This document shows positions 3,993 through 36,792 of a stretch of DNA of 64,000 bases, piece by piece. Made by a program: the position numbers and the translations under genes. Below the pieces are notes generated by a model that made no database searches, was not told the DNA's origin, and saw nothing but the letters and a program-made list of their open reading frames with translations. Source of the stretch: Escherichia phage vB_Eco_BCPEco_001; sequence record PV295200.1; one strand, given 5' to 3'. Position 1 is the stretch's first letter. Each line of letters begins with the position of its first letter.

Positions 3993-6900
3993 TTATTCAA
4001 CCCATTCAAATTTAACAGTTTTATTCACTGGGTCAGGAATAATGCGAACATTACCAATTCGTAAGAAATCACGAATAGTAAGATTACCTATTATTCCATT
4101 ATCAGATGGGATTGCTCCTATATCCGAAGGTTGAGGAGGGTTACCTCCGTCAAATACCTGAACAAAACTTGACCAAGAGTTTTTGGTTTTCTGCCATGTA
4201 CGTGTCCAGCGAGTGGTACGTGCTTCTGGAGTTGTTGGATAAGTAATCCAATCTTGATAAAGCGAATCAAGCGTGTTACCAAACTGAGTCAATGTACCAG
4301 GAGATTTAACCTCTTCGCCACGTTCTAAGTATGGAAGTCCAGTCACTTCATTAGTTTTTTCAACCATCTTAAAATAACCTGGGAACTGGTTATAAGTGGC
4401 TGAATCATTAATATCTATTGACCAGAATCCTACAGTATCAGATGTTGGCGCACGAGTATATAAATCAGAGGTTTTAGTACCCTGAGAACGAATTCTCGAG
4501 TTGACAGTTAAACCACCTGAATTTATAGTAGCACCTTTGGCGATGATTAAGCTTTCACCAATCGTTACTTGACCAGATGCATTATTGATAGCTAAAGGAC
4601 GCAATCCATTAAATCCACCAGTCTGATCACCCGATGCAGTAAGCATAAAATGCGTTACTGACCCACCATTGCGAATAAAGAATCCATAATCACCATTTAT
4701 TGCTCTAAAAGCATTCGACGATTTACTGATAATTTCACCAGTTGCAGTGACTGAATTACCAAATGTTGCTACGCCGTTTGCATTCAATGTTCCTGAAGCA
4801 TTAACATTTATCGGTGTTACTGTACCGTTAATATTAAATGTTATATTTCCAGCTTTATTACGCTGAGAATAAAAATGACTAGACGTTTCATCACTAACTT
4901 CAAATACGGTAGAACGTGTTGTGTCTGATTCCCCACTAAATTGATTACCCCACACTCTGACTGTCATCGTTTGAGCAGGGTTTGTTCCAGTTTGAGGTCC
5001 TTTCTCAAAAATCAGACGAGTTGCCGTTCCAGTATTAGAAATAGTTAATGTACTATTTGCTGAAACTGATCCACCGAATGTAGCAGTACTAGATGATACA
5101 AGAGGGGCACTCAGATTCGTTTGTTGGGTTAAGGTTAGTGAACCATTAACTGTTTGTGCAATGTCCCTACGAATGAACTGGAGCGAATCTAGACCATCTA
5201 ATAAATTACTATCTACAGCTTTTGCTTTTAATGGCAAATAATTTGCTAATACGCGATTTAATTCATATGGTGATACTGCATAACCATTTTTCTCATATGA
5301 TTCTAATGGCTGTGTTGAACCTACCGTATCATTACCAACGAATGTAATTGAACCAGATGAAGTTTTAACAAAGCCTCTTATTGCAGTAGTAGCTGCCCAA
5401 GTAGGTTCACTCTGCACAATCCATTTTAAATTTTTTGGAGATACAGCAGTATTTGCTGATGTTCCAGTCACAGTTTCAGACTGAGTTGCAACTTTAATAA
5501 CACCTTCCTGTGCTTCAGTAGATTTAGTACCTAAAAGCTTTTTAGGAGTTATTAAAACATTATCTAATGTTCCTGCAGCAGCTTCAACTTGTGTAGCTAC
5601 ACGAAGTGTACCACGCTGTGTCTCATTTGCTTCAAGAATATTAAGTGTATAATGGTCCCAGAGAGTTCCTGATTCAACTAATCCAGATAGAGCAACAACA
5701 GAAGTACGATCAGTACTATTAAATCTAGTTTTAATTTTTAATGGTGTAGAGATACGAGTATCGTCGACGCCTGCGTCGAATTCAACCTGTGTAGCAATTT
5801 CAGCTATACCACTTAAACTTTCAGTTGCTCTACGGTCATTTAAAGTTTTAGGAGTGACTGCACGAGTATAGTCAGTTCCTGTATTAACTTCACTTTGCGT
5901 AGCAATTTCAATTAAACCAATTCTTCCATCAGTTGATGTCTTTTTATGTAACGTTTCTGGCGTTACAACCGCATTTGCCCATCCTTCTTGGCTTTGTCCA
6001 GCAATTACTTCACTTTCAACTGCTAAAATTACTGCGCCTTGTTGCGTTGGAGTAGCTTTATACTGATCCAAAGCTTTAGGTGAAACAACTAAATTATTAG
6101 TGTTTTTATTATAAACATTCGTACCATTTAATTCACGGCTAGAAGCTGGAGTAGCTCCTGCAGTAGATACATAAGTTACAATACCAGATAATGATTCAGA
6201 ACCTTGGCGAGCTTGAAGCTTTTTAGGAGTGATGATTGTAGTATCATCAGTACCTGTATTAGTTTCCTGCTGCGTAGCAATTTCAGCGACACCTCTACGA
6301 GTTTCTGTAGCAGTTCTTTCATTCAGCTTTTTAGGAGTGATGATAAGGTCATCTGCAAAAGAGAATGTGGTGTTCTGATTCACTTGAGCAGTAGTTGCTA
6401 TTCTTGCAATACCTCTGCGAGTTTCTGTAGCAGTACGATTAGCTAACGTTTCTGGAGTAATTGCTAATTCTTTTTGTGGAGAATTTTCTAAATCAGCATT
6501 TGCTTGAGCTTGCGTAGCTAAAGCAATTACGCCTAATCTTGCTCTAGTAGAAGCATTTAAAGAGTCTACTCTTTCTACAGTTGGAACGTTTTGCTGTACA
6601 ACCCAGCATTTTCCATCAGAATCTTCTATATAAGCAAGTTGTAAAACTGGTACATAATTAGTTTCACCGTTAAAAACTAATTCTTGAACTGTTACCCATT
6701 CAGCTTCAGGCGGATATTCTGAACGTTTTGGGAATTGCAGCAATTGAACTGAAGAAGCAATTTTATCTTCACCAGCAGCTTTGATTTTAACTGTTTGTCC
6801 TTTTCTCATGTAATTCATGGAAATTTTAACAGTATCACCAACAGAAATATCAGTCGGAAGCTGAAGTTCAATTGTTTGGGTTGTTCCATTATTCGCGCCA

Positions 6901-27885: not shown

Positions 27886-28025
27886 ATAATATGAATTAGG
27901 TGTCGGAATAATAAGTTAACCGAACAATTCTATGTGGTAGTCTACAACTGAGAGATCTGTCGAAAGAAGATGAAATTCAGAAGAACGTGACTACCGAGTT
28001 TTAATCTCTAACGAGAATTTTTTAA

Positions 28026-28274
28026 ATGATTAAACAATTACAACACGCTCTTGAACTGCAACGAAACGCATGGAATAATGGTCACGAAAACTATGGCGCA
28101 TCTATTGATGTTGAAGCCGAAGCTCTTGAAATCCTGCGTTATTTCAAACATCTGAATCCTGCTCAAACTGCATTAGCTGCTGAGCTTCAGGAAAAAGATG
28201 AACTTAAATATGCTAAGCCTTTGGCTTCTGCTGCACGAAAAGCAGTTCGTCACTTTGTGGTAACACTGAAGTAA
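28026..28274 (+). CDS. rIII: rIII lysis inhibition accessory protein
   Basis: 82-aa ORF MIKQLQHALELQRNAWNNGHENYG...; same length and position as T4 rIII. Confidence 0.8.
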   Translation: MIKQLQHALELQRNAWNNGHENYGASIDVEAEALEILRYFKHLNPAQTALAAELQEKDELKYAKPLASAARKAVRHFVVTLK

Positions 28275-28393
28275 TTATGTTGACGAGGTTTATGGTTATC
28301 CTGTCGGTAAATATTCAAAACCTAAGTACCCCTTGAGGGCTTGCGCAGGCAATGCCAATAAGTCCTGCATTTTCATTTAAAAGAGAATTTATA

Positions 28394-28570
28394 ATGGCAA
28401 AACAAGCTAAAGCAAAGAAAGCAGTTGAAAAGAAAGTTGGTGATTCTAAACGCGCTGGTTACAAGCGTGGGTCTAACTCTCGTATCAATCAAACTGTTGA
28501 GAAGATCATGCGCCGAGCACGTGCGGTTCTTCGAGATGATGCTTCTCGTTTTGGTAAGCAGAAAGCATAA
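28394..28570 (+). CDS. hypothetical small basic protein
   Basis: MAKQAKAKKAVEKKVGDSKRAGYKRG...; ORF track start 28352 also possible; followed by a terminator. Confidence 0.4.
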   Translation: MAKQAKAKKAVEKKVGDSKRAGYKRGSNSRINQTVEKIMRRARAVLRDDASRFGKQKA

Positions 28571-28575
28571 GTTGA

Positions 28576-28604
28576 GGACTCCTTCGGGAGTCCTTTTTTA
28601 TTTT
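28576..28604 (+). terminator. rho-independent terminator
   Basis: GGACTCC-TTCG-GGAGTCC followed by TTTTTTATTTT. Confidence 0.7.
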
Positions 28605-28623
28605 CCAAAGATTGCACAAAGTT

Positions 28624-28656
28624 GTTTACAGTACGATTTCTTTGTGATAGTATTAT
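28624..28656 (+). promoter_or_regulatory. sigma70-type early promoter
   Basis: GTTTACA, spacer, TGATAGTATTAT; followed by GGGC-TTCG-GCCC hairpin and GAGGAAA. Confidence 0.45.
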
Positions 28657-28705
28657 CTTATACAAACAAAAGAAAAGGGCTTCGGCCCCTATTGAGGAAA
28701 ATGTT

Positions 28706-28993
28706 ATGTTTATGACTACTTATTTTGATACCCGCAAAAATTTCTGTGAAGTGGTTTTCTCAAAGGCACCTAAAGACCTTCCTGCACATTTGCAACCTAC
28801 TAGCGAATCGATTAAAAACTACGTTGATGTGGTTTGTCCTTTAGAGTTTCGTACTGTAAATGGGCGCGATACTTTAGCTATCACTAAACTCAATCGCGAA
28901 ATTGACATTGACCCTTTAATTGCGCGCGAAATTAATAGTTCTGATATTAATGGCGGTAACGTTAAATCGCACGGTTTTCAGATGAGGTTCTAA
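28706..28993 (+). CDS. hypothetical protein
   Basis: ATG 28706 after GAGGAAA; ORF track start 28622 would overlap the predicted promoter. Confidence 0.45.
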   Translation: MFMTTYFDTRKNFCEVVFSKAPKDLPAHLQPTSESIKNYVDVVCPLEFRTVNGRDTLAITKLNREIDIDPLIAREINSSDINGGNVKSHGFQMRF

Positions 28994-29190
28994 TGAAATT
29001 CTTTTTAGGTCAAACTGTTGAATTAAAGGGAGTTGGTATACCTGGATTAATTTCTAAGGTTCTACCTCCATTTAAATGGAGTGGTATTCAAATAAAAGAG
29101 GCTTATATTGTTTCCTGGGTAGATGGAAATGAAGACCTTCGTATGGGTGATGAATTATCTCCTATTTACGGATTAAAGGAATTAGTATGA
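28993..29190 (+). CDS. hypothetical protein
   Basis: 65-aa ORF. Confidence 0.45.
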   Translation: MKFFLGQTVELKGVGIPGLISKVLPPFKWSGIQIKEAYIVSWVDGNEDLRMGDELSPIYGLKELV

Positions 29191-29393
29191 ATATAATTAA
29201 TAAGATTTTTGGAATTCAGTACATTAAGGTTACATATAAAGTAACAGATAAAAATCCGTATACCGATGAACACGAAGAACCACAAGTTAAGTCTATTATA
29301 TTAGAAAAAGGCAGTGACTGGCCAGTTGAATTTCGTCTTCCTTGCTATGGTCATTGGGCTGATGTTGAAATTATAAGCATTGAAAATGTCTGA
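29187..29393 (+). CDS. hypothetical protein
   Basis: 68-aa ORF. Confidence 0.45.
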   Translation: MNIINKIFGIQYIKVTYKVTDKNPYTDEHEEPQVKSIILEKGSDWPVEFRLPCYGHWADVEIISIENV

Positions 29394-29844
29394 GTTAGAG
29401 ATTAGAAGCAATTTTAGGTGGCCATCATGCGCATTAAGTAATTTCGCCCATTGGCCTTTCGTCATGGATGGTATTCAATTTGGAGGTCTCGAAGGATTCC
29501 TCCAAGGATGTAAGGTGAAAAATGTTGAACAACAACGTCGTATATTTGGGTTATCCGGGCTTGCCGCCCAACAAGCTGGAAGGTCTTATGCTAGAGCTCA
29601 GGACCGTGGGACCCTCTTCTGGCTTGGAGTTCCGTTTTCAAGATACTCCCCGGCGTGGAAAGAATTATACACAAATGCATATTTTGAAGCAGCGATCCAA
29701 AACAAGGGCTTTCGTGATGCATTACAAGCCTCGAAAGGAAAAGTTTTGAAGCATAGCATGGCTAGTGGTCTAACAAAAGATGATACAATACTAACCGAAG
29801 CTGAATTTATTGATGTGTTAAACCTATTAAGAGACTCTCTATGA
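29380..29844 (+). CDS. NADAR/YbiA-like domain protein (DUF1768-like)
   Basis: 154 aa; CALSNFAHWPFVMDGIQFGGLEGFLQGCKVK resembles the NADAR signature LSNF..PF..dG..F.s.E..fQ..K. Confidence 0.5.
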   Translation: MKMSELEIRSNFRWPSCALSNFAHWPFVMDGIQFGGLEGFLQGCKVKNVEQQRRIFGLSGLAAQQAGRSYARAQDRGTLFWLGVPFSRYSPAWKELYTNAYFEAAIQNKGFRDALQASKGKVLKHSMASGLTKDDTILTEAEFIDVLNLLRDSL

Positions 29845-30677
29845 AGCCTACTATTTTAACTGATATTGATGGAGTATGTTTAAGCTGGCAATCAGGCCTT
29901 CCTTATTTTGCTCAGAAATATAATCTTCCGTTAGAACATATTTTAAAAATGATCCAAGATGAAAAATTTATTTCACCTGGTAAACTCTTTAATTGTGATG
30001 AAGAACTTGGCGTTAAGCTAATTGAAAAATACAATCGATCAGATTTTATTCGTTACTTGTCTCCATATAAAGATGCTCTGTGTGTAATTAACAAATTAAA
30101 AGAAGATTATAATTTTGTAGCTGTTACAGCATTGGGTGATTCTATTGACGCTCTGTTGAATCGTCAATTTAATTTGAATGCTCTTTTTCCTGGTGCCTTC
30201 TCAGAAGTAATGATGTGTGGTCATGATTCTTCAAAAGAAGAGTTGTTCAAAAAGGCAAAAGAGAAATATAACGTAATTTGTTATATTGACGATCTCGCTC
30301 ACCACTGCGATCATGCGAGTGAAATATTACGTGTTCCTGTGTATTGGATGGCTCGAGGGGAACGTGACAGTATTCCAAAAACTGCTCAGCGAGTTTATAC
30401 ATGGAATGATGTAGAAAATAAGCTTTTTTCACCGAAGGAAAATAAAGAAAGTTTTGATAGTGAAAAAGCTATAAAAGATGCAATCGAGAAGATGATTAAA
30501 AACGATTCTTTTCCTTGGAACACTACCTGGAGAACTCCTGGATTTAATCCTTATAATCTATATCATCCATATCAGACGCATCCGTTTCAGACATGGAACT
30601 ATATTAAACCTGGCGGCATAGAGTATTTGTATAATAGACCTACTTGTGGTGATAATATTTTCCAAGGAGCATTCTAA
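29841..30677 (+). CDS. HAD-superfamily hydrolase-like protein (5'(3')-deoxyribonucleotidase-like)
   Basis: N-terminal ILTDIDGVC (DxDG motif I) and later YIDDLAHH (DD motif) typical of HAD phosphatases. Confidence 0.5.
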   Translation: MKPTILTDIDGVCLSWQSGLPYFAQKYNLPLEHILKMIQDEKFISPGKLFNCDEELGVKLIEKYNRSDFIRYLSPYKDALCVINKLKEDYNFVAVTALGDSIDALLNRQFNLNALFPGAFSEVMMCGHDSSKEELFKKAKEKYNVICYIDDLAHHCDHASEILRVPVYWMARGERDSIPKTAQRVYTWNDVENKLFSPKENKESFDSEKAIKDAIEKMIKNDSFPWNTTWRTPGFNPYNLYHPYQTHPFQTWNYIKPGGIEYLYNRPTCGDNIFQGAF

Positions 30678-30946
30678 TGTTTGTTGTTCACACTATTTAT
30701 GAAAATGAAGGTAATACTACACGTGATTACGGTCACGTAAATCAATTTTTTAGATGCAATCCAGAATTCCGAGCTCAAAAAGACGAACGAATTTTTAAAA
30801 AATGTGTAGAGCAAGGTTTCATTTACGTCAAGCATTGGATGCAAGGAAATAAAGTTAGAACCACGTACCACAGGTCTTTGACTGAGCTTAATGATGAATT
30901 GATTTATAATAGAGCTGTAAACCAAACTCTAAAGGATGAACAATGA
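30677..30946 (+). CDS. hypothetical protein
   Basis: 89-aa ORF immediately upstream of DNA ligase. Confidence 0.5.
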   Translation: MFVVHTIYENEGNTTRDYGHVNQFFRCNPEFRAQKDERIFKKCVEQGFIYVKHWMQGNKVRTTYHRSLTELNDELIYNRAVNQTLKDEQ

Positions 30947-32406
30947 TTCTTAAAATTCTGAACGAAATAGCATCTATTGGTTCAACTAAACAGAAGCAAG
31001 CAATTCTTGAAAAGAATAAAGATAATGAATTGCTTAAACGAGTATATCGTCTGACTTATTCTCGTGGGTTGCAGTATTATATCAAGAAATGGCCTAAACC
31101 TGGTATTGCTACCCAGAGTTTTGGAATGTTGACTCTTACCGATATGCTTGACTTCATTGAATTCACATTAGCTACTCGGAAATTGACTGGAAATGCGGCA
31201 ATTGAAGAATTAACTGGATATATCACCGATGGTAAAAAAGATGATGTTGAAGTTTTGCGTCGAGTGATGATGCGAGACCTTGAATGTGGTGCTTCAGTAT
31301 CTATTGCAAACAAAGTTTGGCCAGGTTTAATTCCTGAACAACCTCAAATGCTTGCAAGTTCTTATGATGAAAAAGGCATTAATAAGAATATCAAATTTCC
31401 AGCTTTTGCCCAGTTAAAAGCTGATGGAGCTCGGTGCTTTGCCGAAGTCAGAGGTGATGAATTAGATGATGTTCGTCTTTTATCACGAGCCGGTAATGAA
31501 TATCTAGGATTAGATCTTCTTAAGGAAGAGTTAATCAAAATGACCGCTGAAGCCCGCCAGATTCATCCAGAAGGTGTGTTGATTGATGGCGAATTGGTAT
31601 ACCATGAGCAAGTTAAAAAGGAGCCAGAAGGCCTAGATTTTCTTTTTGATGCTCATCCTGAAAACAGTAAAGTTAAAGAATTCGCCGAAGTAGCTGAATC
31701 ACGTACTGCATCTAATGGAATCGCCAATAAATCTTTAAAGGGAACTATTTCAGAAAAAGAAGCACAATGCATGAAGTTTCAGGTCTGGGATTATGTCCCG
31801 TTGGTAGAAATATATGGTCTTCCAGCATTTCGTTTGAAGTATGATGTACGTTTTTCTAAACTAGAACAAATGACATCAGGCTATGATAAAGTAATTTTAA
31901 TTGAAAACCAGGTAGTAAATAACCTAGATGAAGCTAAGGTAATTTATAAAAAGTATATTGACCAAGGTCTTGAAGGTATTATTCTCAAAAATATCGATGG
32001 ATTATGGGAAAATGCTCGTTCAAAAAATCTCTATAAATTTAAAGAAGTAATTGATGTTGATTTAAAAATTGTAGGAATTTATCCTCACCGTAAAGACCCT
32101 ACTAAAGCAGGTGGATTTATTCTTGAGTCAGAGTGTGGAAAAATTAAGGTAAATGCTGGTTCAGGCTTAAAAGATAAAGCCGGTGTAAAATCACATGAAC
32201 TTGACCGTACTCGCATTATGGAAAACCAAAATTATTATATTGGAAAAATTCTAGAGTGCGAATGCAACGGTTGGTTAAAATCCGATGGCCGCACTGATTA
32301 CGTTAAATTATTTCTTCCGATTGCGATTCGTTTACGCGAAGATAAAACTAAAGCTAATACGTTCGAAGATGTATTTGGTGATTTTCATGAGGTAACTGGT
32401 TTATGA
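30943..32406 (+). CDS. 30: ATP-dependent DNA ligase
   Basis: 487 aa, same length as T4 ligase; adenylation motif region FAQLKADGARCF. Confidence 0.95.
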   Translation: MILKILNEIASIGSTKQKQAILEKNKDNELLKRVYRLTYSRGLQYYIKKWPKPGIATQSFGMLTLTDMLDFIEFTLATRKLTGNAAIEELTGYITDGKKDDVEVLRRVMMRDLECGASVSIANKVWPGLIPEQPQMLASSYDEKGINKNIKFPAFAQLKADGARCFAEVRGDELDDVRLLSRAGNEYLGLDLLKEELIKMTAEARQIHPEGVLIDGELVYHEQVKKEPEGLDFLFDAHPENSKVKEFAEVAESRTASNGIANKSLKGTISEKEAQCMKFQVWDYVPLVEIYGLPAFRLKYDVRFSKLEQMTSGYDKVILIENQVVNNLDEAKVIYKKYIDQGLEGIILKNIDGLWENARSKNLYKFKEVIDVDLKIVGIYPHRKDPTKAGGFILESECGKIKVNAGSGLKDKAGVKSHELDRTRIMENQNYYIGKILECECNGWLKSDGRTDYVKLFLPIAIRLREDKTKANTFEDVFGDFHEVTGL

Positions 32407-32591
32407 AAGCTTACTTAGAAACAATTGTCGTGGCTCAAAAAGAAGGTGGAGATGTTTCTACTTCTGTATCACAAATCATGATTGAATTTATCGATGCATA
32501 TGCTTATAATAAATTCACAGAAACTTTTGATGCTTATGAAAAAGGTCCAAAGTTTGAAATATATCGTACTCTCTTACCTATAGATTATTAA
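32403..32591 (+). CDS. hypothetical protein
   Basis: 62-aa ORF overlapping ligase stop; followed by hairpin terminator. Confidence 0.4.
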   Translation: MKAYLETIVVAQKEGGDVSTSVSQIMIEFIDAYAYNKFTETFDAYEKGPKFEIYRTLLPIDY

Positions 32592-32607
32592 AGGCCTTCG
32601 GGCCTTT
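32590..32607 (+). terminator. hairpin terminator after gene 30 operon
   Basis: AAAGGCC-TTCG-GGCCTTT followed by AATTTTA. Confidence 0.55.
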
Positions 32608-32612
32608 AATTT

Positions 32613-32620
32613 TATAAATA
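32613..32620 (+). promoter_or_regulatory. late promoter (TATAAATA) for alt
   Basis: Exact TATAAATA 20 nt upstream of alt ATG, followed by AGAGAGGA. Confidence 0.65.
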
Positions 32621-32643
32621 GAATAAACACTAGAGAGGATATG

Positions 32644-34731
32644 ATGGAACTCATTACAGAATTATTTGACGAAGATACTACTCTTCCGATTACAAACTTA
32701 AATCCAAAGAAGAAAATACCACAAATTTTTTCAGTTCATGTTGATGATGCAATTGAACAACCAGGCTTTCGTTTATGTACCTATACATCTGGAGGTGATA
32801 CTAATCGCGATTTAAAGATGGGCGATAAAATGATGCATATTGTTCCTTTTACATTAACTGCTAAAGGTTCAATTGCTAAATTGAAAGGTCTTGGTCCAAG
32901 CCCAATTAATTATATCAATTCAGTTTTTACTGTTGCAATGCAAACAATGCGTCAATATAAAATTGATGCCTGTATGCTCCGTATTCTTAAGTCTAAAACC
33001 GCTGGTCAAGCTCGACAAATTCAAGTTATTGCTGATAGACTTATCCGTAGTCGTTCAGGTGGCAGATACGTCCTTCTTAAGGAACTCTGGGATTATGATA
33101 AAAAGTATGCATATATTCTTATACATCGCAAAAATGTATCACTAGAAGACATTCCAGGAGTTCCGGAAATTAGTACTGAGCTCTTTACTAAAGTTGAATC
33201 GAAGGTCGGTGATGTTTATATCAATAAAGATACTGGAGCTCAAGTAACTAAAAATGAGGCAATTGCAGCATCTATTGCACAAGAAAATGATAAACGTTCT
33301 GACCAAGCTGTAATTGTTAAAGTTAAAATTTCACGTAGAGCAATTGCGCAAAGTCAATCGTTAGAGTCTTCTAGATTTGAAAGTGAATTATTCCAGAAGT
33401 ATGAATCTACCGCAGCTAATTTCAATAAACCTGCTACCGCTCCTTTAATTCCCGAAGCAGAAGAAATGAAGCTTGGAATTAATTCATTAGCTTCTAAAAC
33501 TAAGGCAGCAAAAATTATTGCCGAAGGAACTGCGAATGAACTTCACTATGACTATAAATTCTTTTCAAAAAGTGAGGTTGATGAAGTTTCTGAAAAAATT
33601 AAAGATGTAATTCTTAACGCAATCAAAAATGAACCAACTACTTCAATAAAATGTTTAGAGAAATACGCAGCAGCTGTTAATAAATTCTTTGAAGAATATA
33701 AAGATAATTGGCTTGATAAACATAATAAAACTCGTAAAGGGCAACCAGATGAAGTCTGGGGAGAAATAACTAAAAATGCCTGGAATGCAGCAAAAACTAA
33801 ATTCCTCAAACGAATGATTTATAGTTTTTCTGGAATTGGTGCTGGTCCAATGATTGATATTACTATTGCCCGTGATGGTTCTAAATATACTCCATCACAA
33901 AAGCGCGGCATTAGAGAATATTGTGGCTCAGGATATACAGACATTAATAATCTTCTTTTAGGTCGTTACAATCCAGAACGATATGATGTAATGAGTGAAA
34001 AAGAAATTGAATCTGCTATAAATAATTTAGATTCAGCTTTTGAAAATGGTGACCGTATACCGGAAGGCATTACAGTTTATCGTGCTCAAAGTATGACTGC
34101 TCCTATATACGAAGCACTAGTTAAAAATAAAGTGTTCTATTTCAGAAATTTTGTATCTACTTCTTTAACTCCTATCATTTTTGGACGTTTTGGAATTACA
34201 CATGCTGGTATTGGTCTTTTAGAACCAGAAGCTCGCAATGAATTAACAGTTGATAAAAATGAAGAAGGAATAACTATTAATCCAAACGAAATAAGAGCGT
34301 ATAAAGAAAATCCTGAATACGTTAAAGTTCAAATAGGATGGGCAATTGATGGAGCTCATAAAGTTAATGTTGTATATCCAGGAAGTCTCGGAATAGCAAC
34401 AGAAGCTGAAGTTATTCTACCGCGCGGATTAATGGTTAAAGTTAATAAAATAACTGATGCTTCTAATAATGACGGAACAACATCTAATAATACAAAACTC
34501 ATTCAAGCTGAAGTTATGACCACAGAAGAACTCACCGAATCGGTAATCTATGACGGAGACCATTTAATGGAAACTGGTGAATTGGTTACAATGACAGGTG
34601 ATATAGAAGATAGAGTTGACTTTGCATCATTTGTTTCATCAAATGTTAAACAGAAAGTAGAATCATCTCTTGGAATTATTGCGTCTTGCATAGATATTAC
34701 AAACATGCCTTACAAGTTCGTTCAAGGATAA
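32644..34731 (+). CDS. alt: Alt-family mono-ADP-ribosyltransferase (head-packaged, copy 1)
   Basis: MELITELFDEDTTLPITNL...; C-terminal ART triad: VYRAQ (Arg), FVSTSL (Ser-Thr-Ser), ATEAEVILPRG (Glu-x-Glu); late promoter TATAAATA upstream; ORF track start 32641. Confidence 0.85.
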   Translation: MELITELFDEDTTLPITNLNPKKKIPQIFSVHVDDAIEQPGFRLCTYTSGGDTNRDLKMGDKMMHIVPFTLTAKGSIAKLKGLGPSPINYINSVFTVAMQTMRQYKIDACMLRILKSKTAGQARQIQVIADRLIRSRSGGRYVLLKELWDYDKKYAYILIHRKNVSLEDIPGVPEISTELFTKVESKVGDVYINKDTGAQVTKNEAIAASIAQENDKRSDQAVIVKVKISRRAIAQSQSLESSRFESELFQKYESTAANFNKPATAPLIPEAEEMKLGINSLASKTKAAKIIAEGTANELHYDYKFFSKSEVDEVSEKIKDVILNAIKNEPTTSIKCLEKYAAAVNKFFEEYKDNWLDKHNKTRKGQPDEVWGEITKNAWNAAKTKFLKRMIYSFSGIGAGPMIDITIARDGSKYTPSQKRGIREYCGSGYTDINNLLLGRYNPERYDVMSEKEIESAINNLDSAFENGDRIPEGITVYRAQSMTAPIYEALVKNKVFYFRNFVSTSLTPIIFGRFGITHAGIGLLEPEARNELTVDKNEEGITINPNEIRAYKENPEYVKVQIGWAIDGAHKVNVVYPGSLGIATEAEVILPRGLMVKVNKITDASNNDGTTSNNTKLIQAEVMTTEELTESVIYDGDHLMETGELVTMTGDIEDRVDFASFVSSNVKQKVESSLGIIASCIDITNMPYKFVQG

Positions 34732-34734
34732 ATC

Positions 34735-36792
34735 ATGGAACTTATTACAGAATTATTTGACGGCGCTTCGGCGCCGGTTGTTAACTTAAATCCTAAGCAT
34801 AAAATACCACAAATTTTTGCTATCCAAACCGGCGAAGAAAGCGTGCTTCCTGGATTTAGATTTTGTACATACACCTCTGGTGGTGATACGAATAAAAACG
34901 TTAAGCCAGGCGATAAAATGATGCATATCGTAATGATAGGTGTCAACGAGAAATTATCGCTGGTTAAGCTTAGAAACTTGGGTGGAAATCCAATTGGCGT
35001 CATTAATGCTGTTTTTGATACTGCTCTTCAAACAATGAAGCAGTATAAAATCGACGCATGCTTATTCCGCGTACTAAAAAGTAAAACAAATGGCGCAGCT
35101 CGTCAAATGCAAGTTATTGCTGACCGTTTAGTACGTACTAAAGGAGCAGGTCGATATGTTCTTTTAAAGGAAATCTGGGACTATGATAAAAAGTATGCAT
35201 ATATTATGGTTTACCGTAAAAATGCCAATTTAGAAGACATTCCAGGTGTACCTCCTATTTCAACTGAGTTATTCACAAAAGTTGAATCAAAGGTCGGTGA
35301 TGTTTATGTAGATGTTAAAACAGGTGATGCTGTTCCTAAAGCTGTCGCTGTTGCTGCTTCTATTGCTTTAGAAAATGATAAGCGCACGGATCAAGCTGTT
35401 ATTCAGAAAACTAAAATTAGTCGTCGATTAGCAGCACAAGCTCAATATTCTACTGTTGATGCTTCACTTCAGGGTGATAGCTTCGCTGCTAAGAAATATC
35501 AAGAGTTTGAATCTAAAGTTCCGGTATATAAAGCAGAAGGACCAATGAACTCTGGCGTTATTCAGATTGGTTCAAACTTCAACAAAGGAGCTATCGGTGG
35601 TATGAGAAGTGCTTCTCGTTTTAAATCTAGCGATTATGAACTAGAAAACTTCCGAAATCATATTGCATTAGCCCATGCACGTTTACGTGATCCATCTATC
35701 AAGTTGCAGAGCGATATAACATATCAAGGTTCTCAAGAATATTTAAAGAATAAAGAATTCTTTGATTATAAAACTGATAAAATTTTAAGCGATCTTGCTG
35801 ACATTAATATTTCTAATAGCTTTGATGTTATTAAGAAAATTATCAATGATTTGGTTAAAGGTTCTAATGCTACGCCAGATGAAAAGACAGCTATTATTCA
35901 ATTTGTCATGAATGGCATTTATAAATTGATTAATGAATCTGCTGCTCAGGCATATGAATATGCAAGTACTGAAGTAACTCCAAAAGGACTGACTCAGGCT
36001 GAGTCTGATGTAATTGAAGATTATTGTGCAGATTCATATGTTGAAATGAACTCGTTCCTTTTGGGTAAACCAGATTCTACCCGTGAAGAATATATGGAAC
36101 GAGCTATTAAGCACATCGAGACGTTGGATTCTGCCTTTGCCAAAGGATCAGTTCTTCCTCCAGGAACTACACTTTACCGTGGACAAGAAGTTACCTTTAA
36201 AACTTTGCGTCATAACATTGAAAACAAAATGTTCTATTTCAAGAACTTCGTATCCACATCGCTTAAACCAAATATCTTCGGTGAGCATGGTAAAAACTAT
36301 ATGGCTCTAGATGATTCCGGCGCAGTATTTTCTGGTGAAGGAGAAGGTTCCGTTGATGCAGAAGATTTGATGCATATGGGTAGTCATTCTACATATGCTA
36401 ATGAAGATGCTGAAACTAGCGTGGGTATGGTAATTAAAGGAGCTGAGCGAATCAAAGTTATCGTTCCAGGTCATTTATCAGGATTTCCATCAGAAGCTGA
36501 AGTTATTCTACCGCGTGGAATTTTACTGAAGATTAATAAAGTAAGTACGTACTTTATGAAAGAAACTGCTTATAACAAGTATCTAATCGAAGGTACAATC
36601 GTTCCTCCTTCTGAACAATTAGAAGAATCAGTATATGATGGCGACCATCTAATGGAAACTGGTGAAGTTCGTCCAATGGTTGGATTTAATCAATTCCTTG
36701 TAGAAGAATCAAAAGAAGAGGAAAACGAAGTTTCTCAAATCTTGGCTTCTTTGGTTAACATCAACGGAATGTCTAAAAAGTTCAAAATGTAG
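34735..36792 (+). CDS. Alt-family mono-ADP-ribosyltransferase paralog (copy 2)
   Basis: 685 aa MELITELFDGASAPVVNL...; homologous to copy 1 throughout; ART motifs LYRGQ, FVSTSL, PSEAEVILPRG retained; divergent central region. Confidence 0.8.
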   Translation: MELITELFDGASAPVVNLNPKHKIPQIFAIQTGEESVLPGFRFCTYTSGGDTNKNVKPGDKMMHIVMIGVNEKLSLVKLRNLGGNPIGVINAVFDTALQTMKQYKIDACLFRVLKSKTNGAARQMQVIADRLVRTKGAGRYVLLKEIWDYDKKYAYIMVYRKNANLEDIPGVPPISTELFTKVESKVGDVYVDVKTGDAVPKAVAVAASIALENDKRTDQAVIQKTKISRRLAAQAQYSTVDASLQGDSFAAKKYQEFESKVPVYKAEGPMNSGVIQIGSNFNKGAIGGMRSASRFKSSDYELENFRNHIALAHARLRDPSIKLQSDITYQGSQEYLKNKEFFDYKTDKILSDLADINISNSFDVIKKIINDLVKGSNATPDEKTAIIQFVMNGIYKLINESAAQAYEYASTEVTPKGLTQAESDVIEDYCADSYVEMNSFLLGKPDSTREEYMERAIKHIETLDSAFAKGSVLPPGTTLYRGQEVTFKTLRHNIENKMFYFKNFVSTSLKPNIFGEHGKNYMALDDSGAVFSGEGEGSVDAEDLMHMGSHSTYANEDAETSVGMVIKGAERIKVIVPGHLSGFPSEAEVILPRGILLKINKVSTYFMKETAYNKYLIEGTIVPPSEQLEESVYDGDHLMETGEVRPMVGFNQFLVEESKEEENEVSQILASLVNINGMSKKFKM

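Follow-up and report, generated by a model that had tools for sequence, protein, structure and literature searches.

Gene 30.3 of a T4-like Escherichia phage as a NADAR-fold adfN allele, with the adjoining gene 30.2 as a predicted HAD-superfamily phosphatase

[quoted passage not shown] In the same study, purified AdfN-T4 took ADP-ribose off DarT1-modified DNA, the E36A and K43 mutants lost function, the AlphaFold model of the protein matched three NADAR structures, and, in a phylogeny, DarT1-associated NADARs were the closest neighbours of the T4 cluster; RB69, which is sensitive to DarTG1, carries a frameshift that deletes the last helix of its AdfN (PMC11825919). AdfN-T4 leaves uninfected E. 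coli susceptible to DarT1 toxicity, and the protection that it gives to phages other than T-even ones is only partial (PMC11825919, PMC11125620). Biochemical work on NADARs (Toxins 2024, PMC11125620) reported that the 'T4 phage NADAR (gp30.3)' hydrolyses guanosine-ADPr and not thymidine-ADPr in vitro, and that the characteristic residue of the last strand is His in phage NADARs, Glu in the YbiA-type and Asp in the DarT1-linked ones. In the methods of that paper, the construct named 'E. coli T4 phage NADAR (gp30.3)' spans residues 1-208, compared with the 152 aa of T4 gp30.3; it may derive from another T4-like homologue, or additional sequence may be included in the count. A 2025 preprint based on HIDEN-SEQ reported a loss of transposon insertions in 30.3/adfN that was specific to a DarTG1 host (10.1101/2025.11.20.689424).

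The window analysed here, a stretch of 64,000 nucleotides from Escherichia phage vB_Eco_BCPEco_001 (PV295200.1), belongs to a T4-like phage (Tequatrovirus), and its + strand is inverted relative to the T4 reference. When 2.1 kb around 30.3 and 30.2 served as a query, 671 phage records matched, the top one at 98.8% identity and nearly all of them Tequatrovirus-like, with Escherichia, Shigella, Salmonella, and Yersinia as hosts. Mapping of the T4 proteins onto the window gave the order cd, 31.2, 31.1, 31, rIII, 30.9, 30.6, 30.5, 30.4, 30.3, 30.2, 30.1, 30 (ligase), alt.1, and alt, so that the T4 early-gene string 30.6-30.5-30.4-30.3-30.2-30.1-30 (ligase) is present. The T4 genes 30.7 and 30.8 are missing from this phage, 30.9 (28394-28567) being followed directly by 30.6 (28706-28990), and the gap between them (28568-28705) contains a terminator-like hairpin (28574-28595) and a promoter-like site (28625-28653). 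A scan of positions 27900-32700 for promoters and terminators showed no excess of promoters, with 20 compared with 15.8 ± 3.8 in shuffled sequence. The genes around 30.3 are tightly packed: 30.4 and 30.3 overlap by 8 nt (ATGTCTGA, 29386-29393) and 30.3 and 30.2 by 4 nt (ATGA, 29841-29844), and these overlapping stop and start codons suggest that the string 30.4-30.3-30.2 is probably translationally coupled. Downstream, gene 30.1 (30677-30946, +), which encodes an 89-aa DUF3045 protein (Pfam PF11243, 2.9e-64) 98.9% identical to that of T4, lies between 30.2 and the ATP-dependent DNA ligase gene 30 (30943-32406, +; Pfam PF01068, 4.2e-33), whose product is 99.4% identical to the T4 ligase.

The initial annotation had singled out two open reading frames in this region, and both are real genes of the + strand, the first matching PF08010 (GP30.3) at 7.7e-70 in a direct Pfam scan and the second phrog_420 at 1.2e-92. 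The first, which had been delimited as 29380-29844, does contain the peptide LSNFAHWPFVMDGIQFGGLEGFLQGCKVK that was read as a NADAR signature, but its start has to be moved from the TTG at 29380 to the ATG at 29386, which agrees with the 152-aa T4 annotation and yields the published numbering of E36 and K43. Gene 30.3/adfN thus occupies positions 29386-29844 (+). The two extra codons of the mechanical ORF, TTG AAA (29380-29385, +), lie 5' of the annotated ATG and are probably not translated, the T4 reference CDS having 459 nt and 152 aa. The window protein has the same length as T4 gp30.3 and is identical to it at 150 of 152 residues (98.7%); its orthology to the T4 locus is further supported by the flanking genes 30.4 and 30.2, which follow the T4 order. 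Within adfN, a 75-aa ORF in another frame, 30.3' (29522-29749, +), is also kept and is 97% identical to T4 30.3', a product of internal translation according to the T4 annotation.

The superfamily placement of gp30.3 draws on profile, transitive, and structural evidence, since the window protein itself did not match PF08719 (NADAR) in the direct Pfam scan at E <= 0.1. Single-sequence searches (phmmer against the PDB, and NCBIfam) were likewise uninformative for gp30.3 and gp30.2. Among 70 full-length relatives drawn from a collection of 5.8 billion proteins, nine match PF08719 directly (best 1.5e-7), and the profile of the family has a sole match in the PDB, E. coli YbiA (2b3w, E = 0.0093), along an alignment that spans the SNF...E..FQ..K motif. 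The AlphaFold2 model built from the family alignment reaches a pLDDT of 93.5 and a pTM of 0.89. All 70 sequences keep S18, N19, F20, E36, G37, F38, Q40, and H123, and K43 is found in 68 of them. gp30.3 therefore belongs to the NADAR superfamily, with the YbiA fold, as had been proposed from the signature, and the catalytic residues are conserved; a Pfam search of the window protein on its own, which recovers PF08010 but not PF08719, would have given an ambiguous answer if taken literally. In some GenBank records, 'NADAR domain containing protein' is already in use as the name. Another reading would make gp30.3 a housekeeping N-glycosidase of the YbiA type, active on intermediates of the riboflavin pathway and not on DNA. 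We give it almost no credence, since the gp30.3 family has His in place of the Glu that is diagnostic of the YbiA family, the T4 cluster is closest to DarT1-associated NADARs, and both DNA de-ADP-ribosylation and counter-defence have been demonstrated (PMC11825919).

Gene 30.3 of the window is thus very probably an adfN whose product counters DarTG1, and, with the same high confidence, 30.2 is predicted to code for a HAD phosphatase that would depend on Mg, have a C1 cap, and most likely act on a nucleotide-like substrate. According to the mechanism that we favour for the first, host DarT1 would ADP-ribosylate guanines of the phage DNA and block replication, and AdfN would hydrolyse the bond between ADP-ribose and guanine, freeing ADP-ribose, restoring the base, and allowing the phage to replicate. 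AdfN would in this way act as a stand-alone NADAR-fold 'orphan antitoxin', a mimic of the host DarG1, with E36 and K43 serving in catalysis alongside H123, which replaces the last-strand Glu or Asp of cellular NADARs. The window allele is predicted to be active because it is full length, its C-terminal helix (138-151) is complete in the model and free of an RB69-type frameshift, and its only differences from T4, Q22H and I125M, fall at two variable positions, M being the majority residue at position 125 in the 70-sequence alignment. By analogy with T4, we infer that this allele shares the DNA ADP-ribosylglycohydrolase activity and the part played in counter-defence, and for annotation purposes the phage can be predicted to resist DarTG1. 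The suggestion, made from the letters of the sequence, that the first ORF counters host defence by removing ADP-ribose from DNA guanines agrees with what has been published for T4 AdfN, 98.7% identical (PMC11825919, PMC11125620), and is accordingly already known and not new; experiments did not establish the function until 2024-2025, and it was recognised here from raw sequence.

Reversal of DarTG1 might also be just one facet of a protein whose main substrate is ADP-ribosylated RNA or protein, such as the products of Alt/Mod or of other host defences. Two genes for Alt-type ADP-ribosyltransferases lie ~3 kb from 30.3, the authors who described AdfN proposed that further defences which ADP-ribosylate DNA or RNA may be targets (PMC11825919), and among NADARs the specificity in vivo is not predicted by the activity measured in vitro (PMC11125620). 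Set against this, the DarTG1 phenotype is strong and specific in genetics (PMC11825919, 10.1101/2025.11.20.689424), NADARs are not known to act on protein-linked ADP-ribose, Acinetobacter phage Acj61 carries alt on the other strand, and other phages have alt and the NADAR gene far apart. An RNA or protein as main substrate thus appears unlikely, and DarT1-modified DNA remains the substrate that we favour.

The alt region of the window also differs from that of T4. The main alt gene (32641-34731, +) is just 70.6% identical to T4 Alt, amid nearly identical flanks (99.4% for the ligase and 100% for alt.1), which points to local mosaicism or fast evolution of this ADP-ribosyltransferase as a likely cause. 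It is adjoined by a second intact Alt-like ADP-ribosyltransferase gene (34735-36792, +), which encodes a 685-aa protein (PF03496, 6e-20) 41% identical to the first. All that T4 has at this second site is two short fragments, alt.-1 and alt.-2, which are 93-96% identical to the N-terminus of the second Alt-like protein and, judging from these sequences, look like remnants of a paralogue kept whole in the window phage.

Gene 30.2 (29841-30677, +) encodes a protein of 278 aa, identical to T4 gp30.2 at 273 positions. The window protein matches no Pfam family in the direct scan and is a member of phrog_420, a group that carries no functional annotation. The two HAD motifs reported in the initial annotation, DIDGV and YIDDL, are indeed present, and the four motifs of the superfamily occur in the correct order and are conserved among 58 relatives: D8, D10, and G11 of motif I are found in all 58, T96 of motif II is T in 55 and S in three, K132 of motif III is again universal, and D150 and D151 of motif IV are each kept in 57. 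The second Asp of motif I (DxD, in full DxDx(T/V)) marks phosphoryl-transfer enzymes, not dehalogenases, and gp30.2, which has this form, would therefore be a phosphoryl-transfer enzyme. Pfam, silent on the window protein, does reach the superfamily through the relatives, seven of the 58 matching the generic PF00702 and five PF06941 (NT5C; best 1.2e-4); a few relatives also match HAD-IA models of NCBIfam. In the AlphaFold2 model, residues 1 to ~195 form a catalytic core and a helical C1 cap, located between motifs I and II, and every 10-residue block of residues 1-190 averages at least 94 pLDDT. We consider the membership of gp30.2 among HAD phosphatases to be firm. It is also known already, in the sense that several GenBank records call homologues of this widespread and conserved phage protein 'putative phosphatase' or 'HAD-like'; a full-text literature search for 'gp30.2' found no paper.

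The C-terminal tail of gp30.2 (30430-30677, residues ~197-278) is for the most part modelled with low confidence and rich in Trp, Tyr, Phe, Pro, and Asn; residues 226-231 and 239-278, with this abundance of aromatic residues, Pro, and Asn, have pLDDT values below 50. The tail is highly variable across the family (176-347 aa) and absent from many homologues, and it may serve as an interaction tail.

The substrate of gp30.2 can be predicted with less precision. The family profile detects the nucleotidase structure 2jao in the PDB at E = 0.052, and the top structural matches include cdN and 3bwv, tied with dehalogenases, epoxysuccinate hydrolases, and YfnB. The resemblance to 5'(3')-deoxyribonucleotidases put forward at the outset is thus the best single guess for this protein, but these structural scores, shared among HAD subfamilies, do not establish it. 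Most likely, gp30.2 acts on a small nucleotide-like phosphomonoester.

The overlap between 30.3 and 30.2 might reflect a two-enzyme anti-DarT module, in which gp30.2 would be the T-even factor behind the full activity of AdfN-T4 in vivo, would complete the repair, or would process or clear the released ADP-ribose product. gp30.2 is a legitimate candidate for such a role because full activity of AdfN-T4 in vivo needs a T-even factor: the enzyme is fully effective only during Tevenvirinae infection, and 30.2, mentioned once in that study, in a figure legend, was apparently outside the tests carried out there (PMC11825919). Apart from the shared ATGA, the two genes have near-equal distributions, with homologues of 30.3 in 1,510 phage records and of 30.2 in 1,452 and nearly identical host breakdowns, although this co-distribution says little because both are common in Straboviridae. 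AdfN-T4, however, is active in vitro when purified and alone (PMC11825919, PMC11125620), and the text of the transposon study describes 30.3 alone as conditionally essential on DarTG1 and nowhere mentions 30.2 (10.1101/2025.11.20.689424). Synteny argues in the same direction. The 30.3 and 30.2 homologues of Acinetobacter phage Acj61 and of Klebsiella phage Miro have one or two small ORFs between them, and no gp30.2 homologue was found within ~4 kb of the gp30.3-type NADAR in Vibrio phage VH1_2019, Aeromonas phage 31.2, Rhizobium phage RHph_I34, or Ralstonia phage RSP15. Conversely, the HAD gene of Aeromonas phage AS-sw is near the ligase, and no NADAR was found in its 7.5-kb HAD-ligase locus. 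Given the activity of AdfN alone in vitro, the synteny, and the silence of the DarTG1 transposon screen on 30.2, we regard a two-enzyme module as very unlikely; an obligate 30.2-30.3 module is also unlikely in view of the synteny and the published in vitro activity. We retain the reading in which 30.2, translationally coupled 3' of 30.3, would encode a predicted Mg-dependent HAD phosphatase with no mechanistic tie to AdfN.

Two observations concern the gene neighbourhoods of these distant phages. In Aeromonas phage 31.2 and Ralstonia phage RSP15, the gp30.3-type NADAR gene is inside a tRNA gene cluster and not by the ligase. In AS-sw, a 153-aa 'hydrolase' (4103-4564 of the examined locus) separates the gp30.2 homologue from the ligase, in the slot of T4 gene 30.1; we considered it as a possible NADAR in swapped order and rejected it, since tblastn shows no similarity to gp30.3.

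In T4, Acj61, Miro, and AS-sw, the HAD gene is directly upstream of the ligase gene or one small gene away, and, since the adjacency of 30.3 and 30.2 is lost with evolutionary distance, the HAD-ligase linkage is more conserved than the HAD-NADAR one. gp30.2 could be an enzyme of DNA metabolism tied to the ligase and replication genes and not to AdfN, either a nucleotidase with an effect on dNMP pools or a DNA 3'-phosphate phosphatase. This is a serious possibility that we hold only tentatively: conserved gene order is common in T4-like genomes and need not reflect function, the structural scores are flat over many HAD subfamilies, and T4 already possesses a 3'-phosphatase, PseT.

Compared with known systems, gp30.2 shares with HAD subfamily I (C1 cap) the Rossmann-like core, the helical cap, and the motifs DxDG, T, K, and DD. 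Its nearest specific family is that of the NT5C 5'(3')-deoxyribonucleotidases (cdN/mdN, PDB 2jao, 2i7d, 3bwv), and the highest target-normalised TM-scores (0.64-0.71) and smallest rmsd values are those of cdN and 3bwv. The identity to NT5C proteins is only 14-20%, with no Pfam NT5C match for the window protein, and, unlike them, gp30.2 has an extra C-terminal tail of ~80 residues, poorly predicted and of variable length. On the side of gp30.3, E. coli YbiA (PDB 2b3w; PF08719) differs by its last-strand Glu and its housekeeping role in riboflavin metabolism. The DarG1-type NADARs (Geobacter lovleyi, PDB 8bat) and the Phytophthora NADAR (8bau) are 14-19% identical to gp30.3, which lacks the N-terminal extension of DarG1 and a linked DarT toxin and has His, not Asp, in the last strand; moreover, in contrast with DarG1-type antitoxins, AdfN-T4 fails to neutralise DarT1 in uninfected cells (PMC11825919, PMC11125620). 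The nearest known system is AdfN-T4 itself (T4 gp30.3, NP_049816), with which the window protein shares 150 of 152 residues, the position between 30.4 and 30.2, the residues E36, K43, and H123, and the C-terminal helix. Only Q22H and I125M set the two alleles apart, and from the sequences no functional difference between them would be expected.
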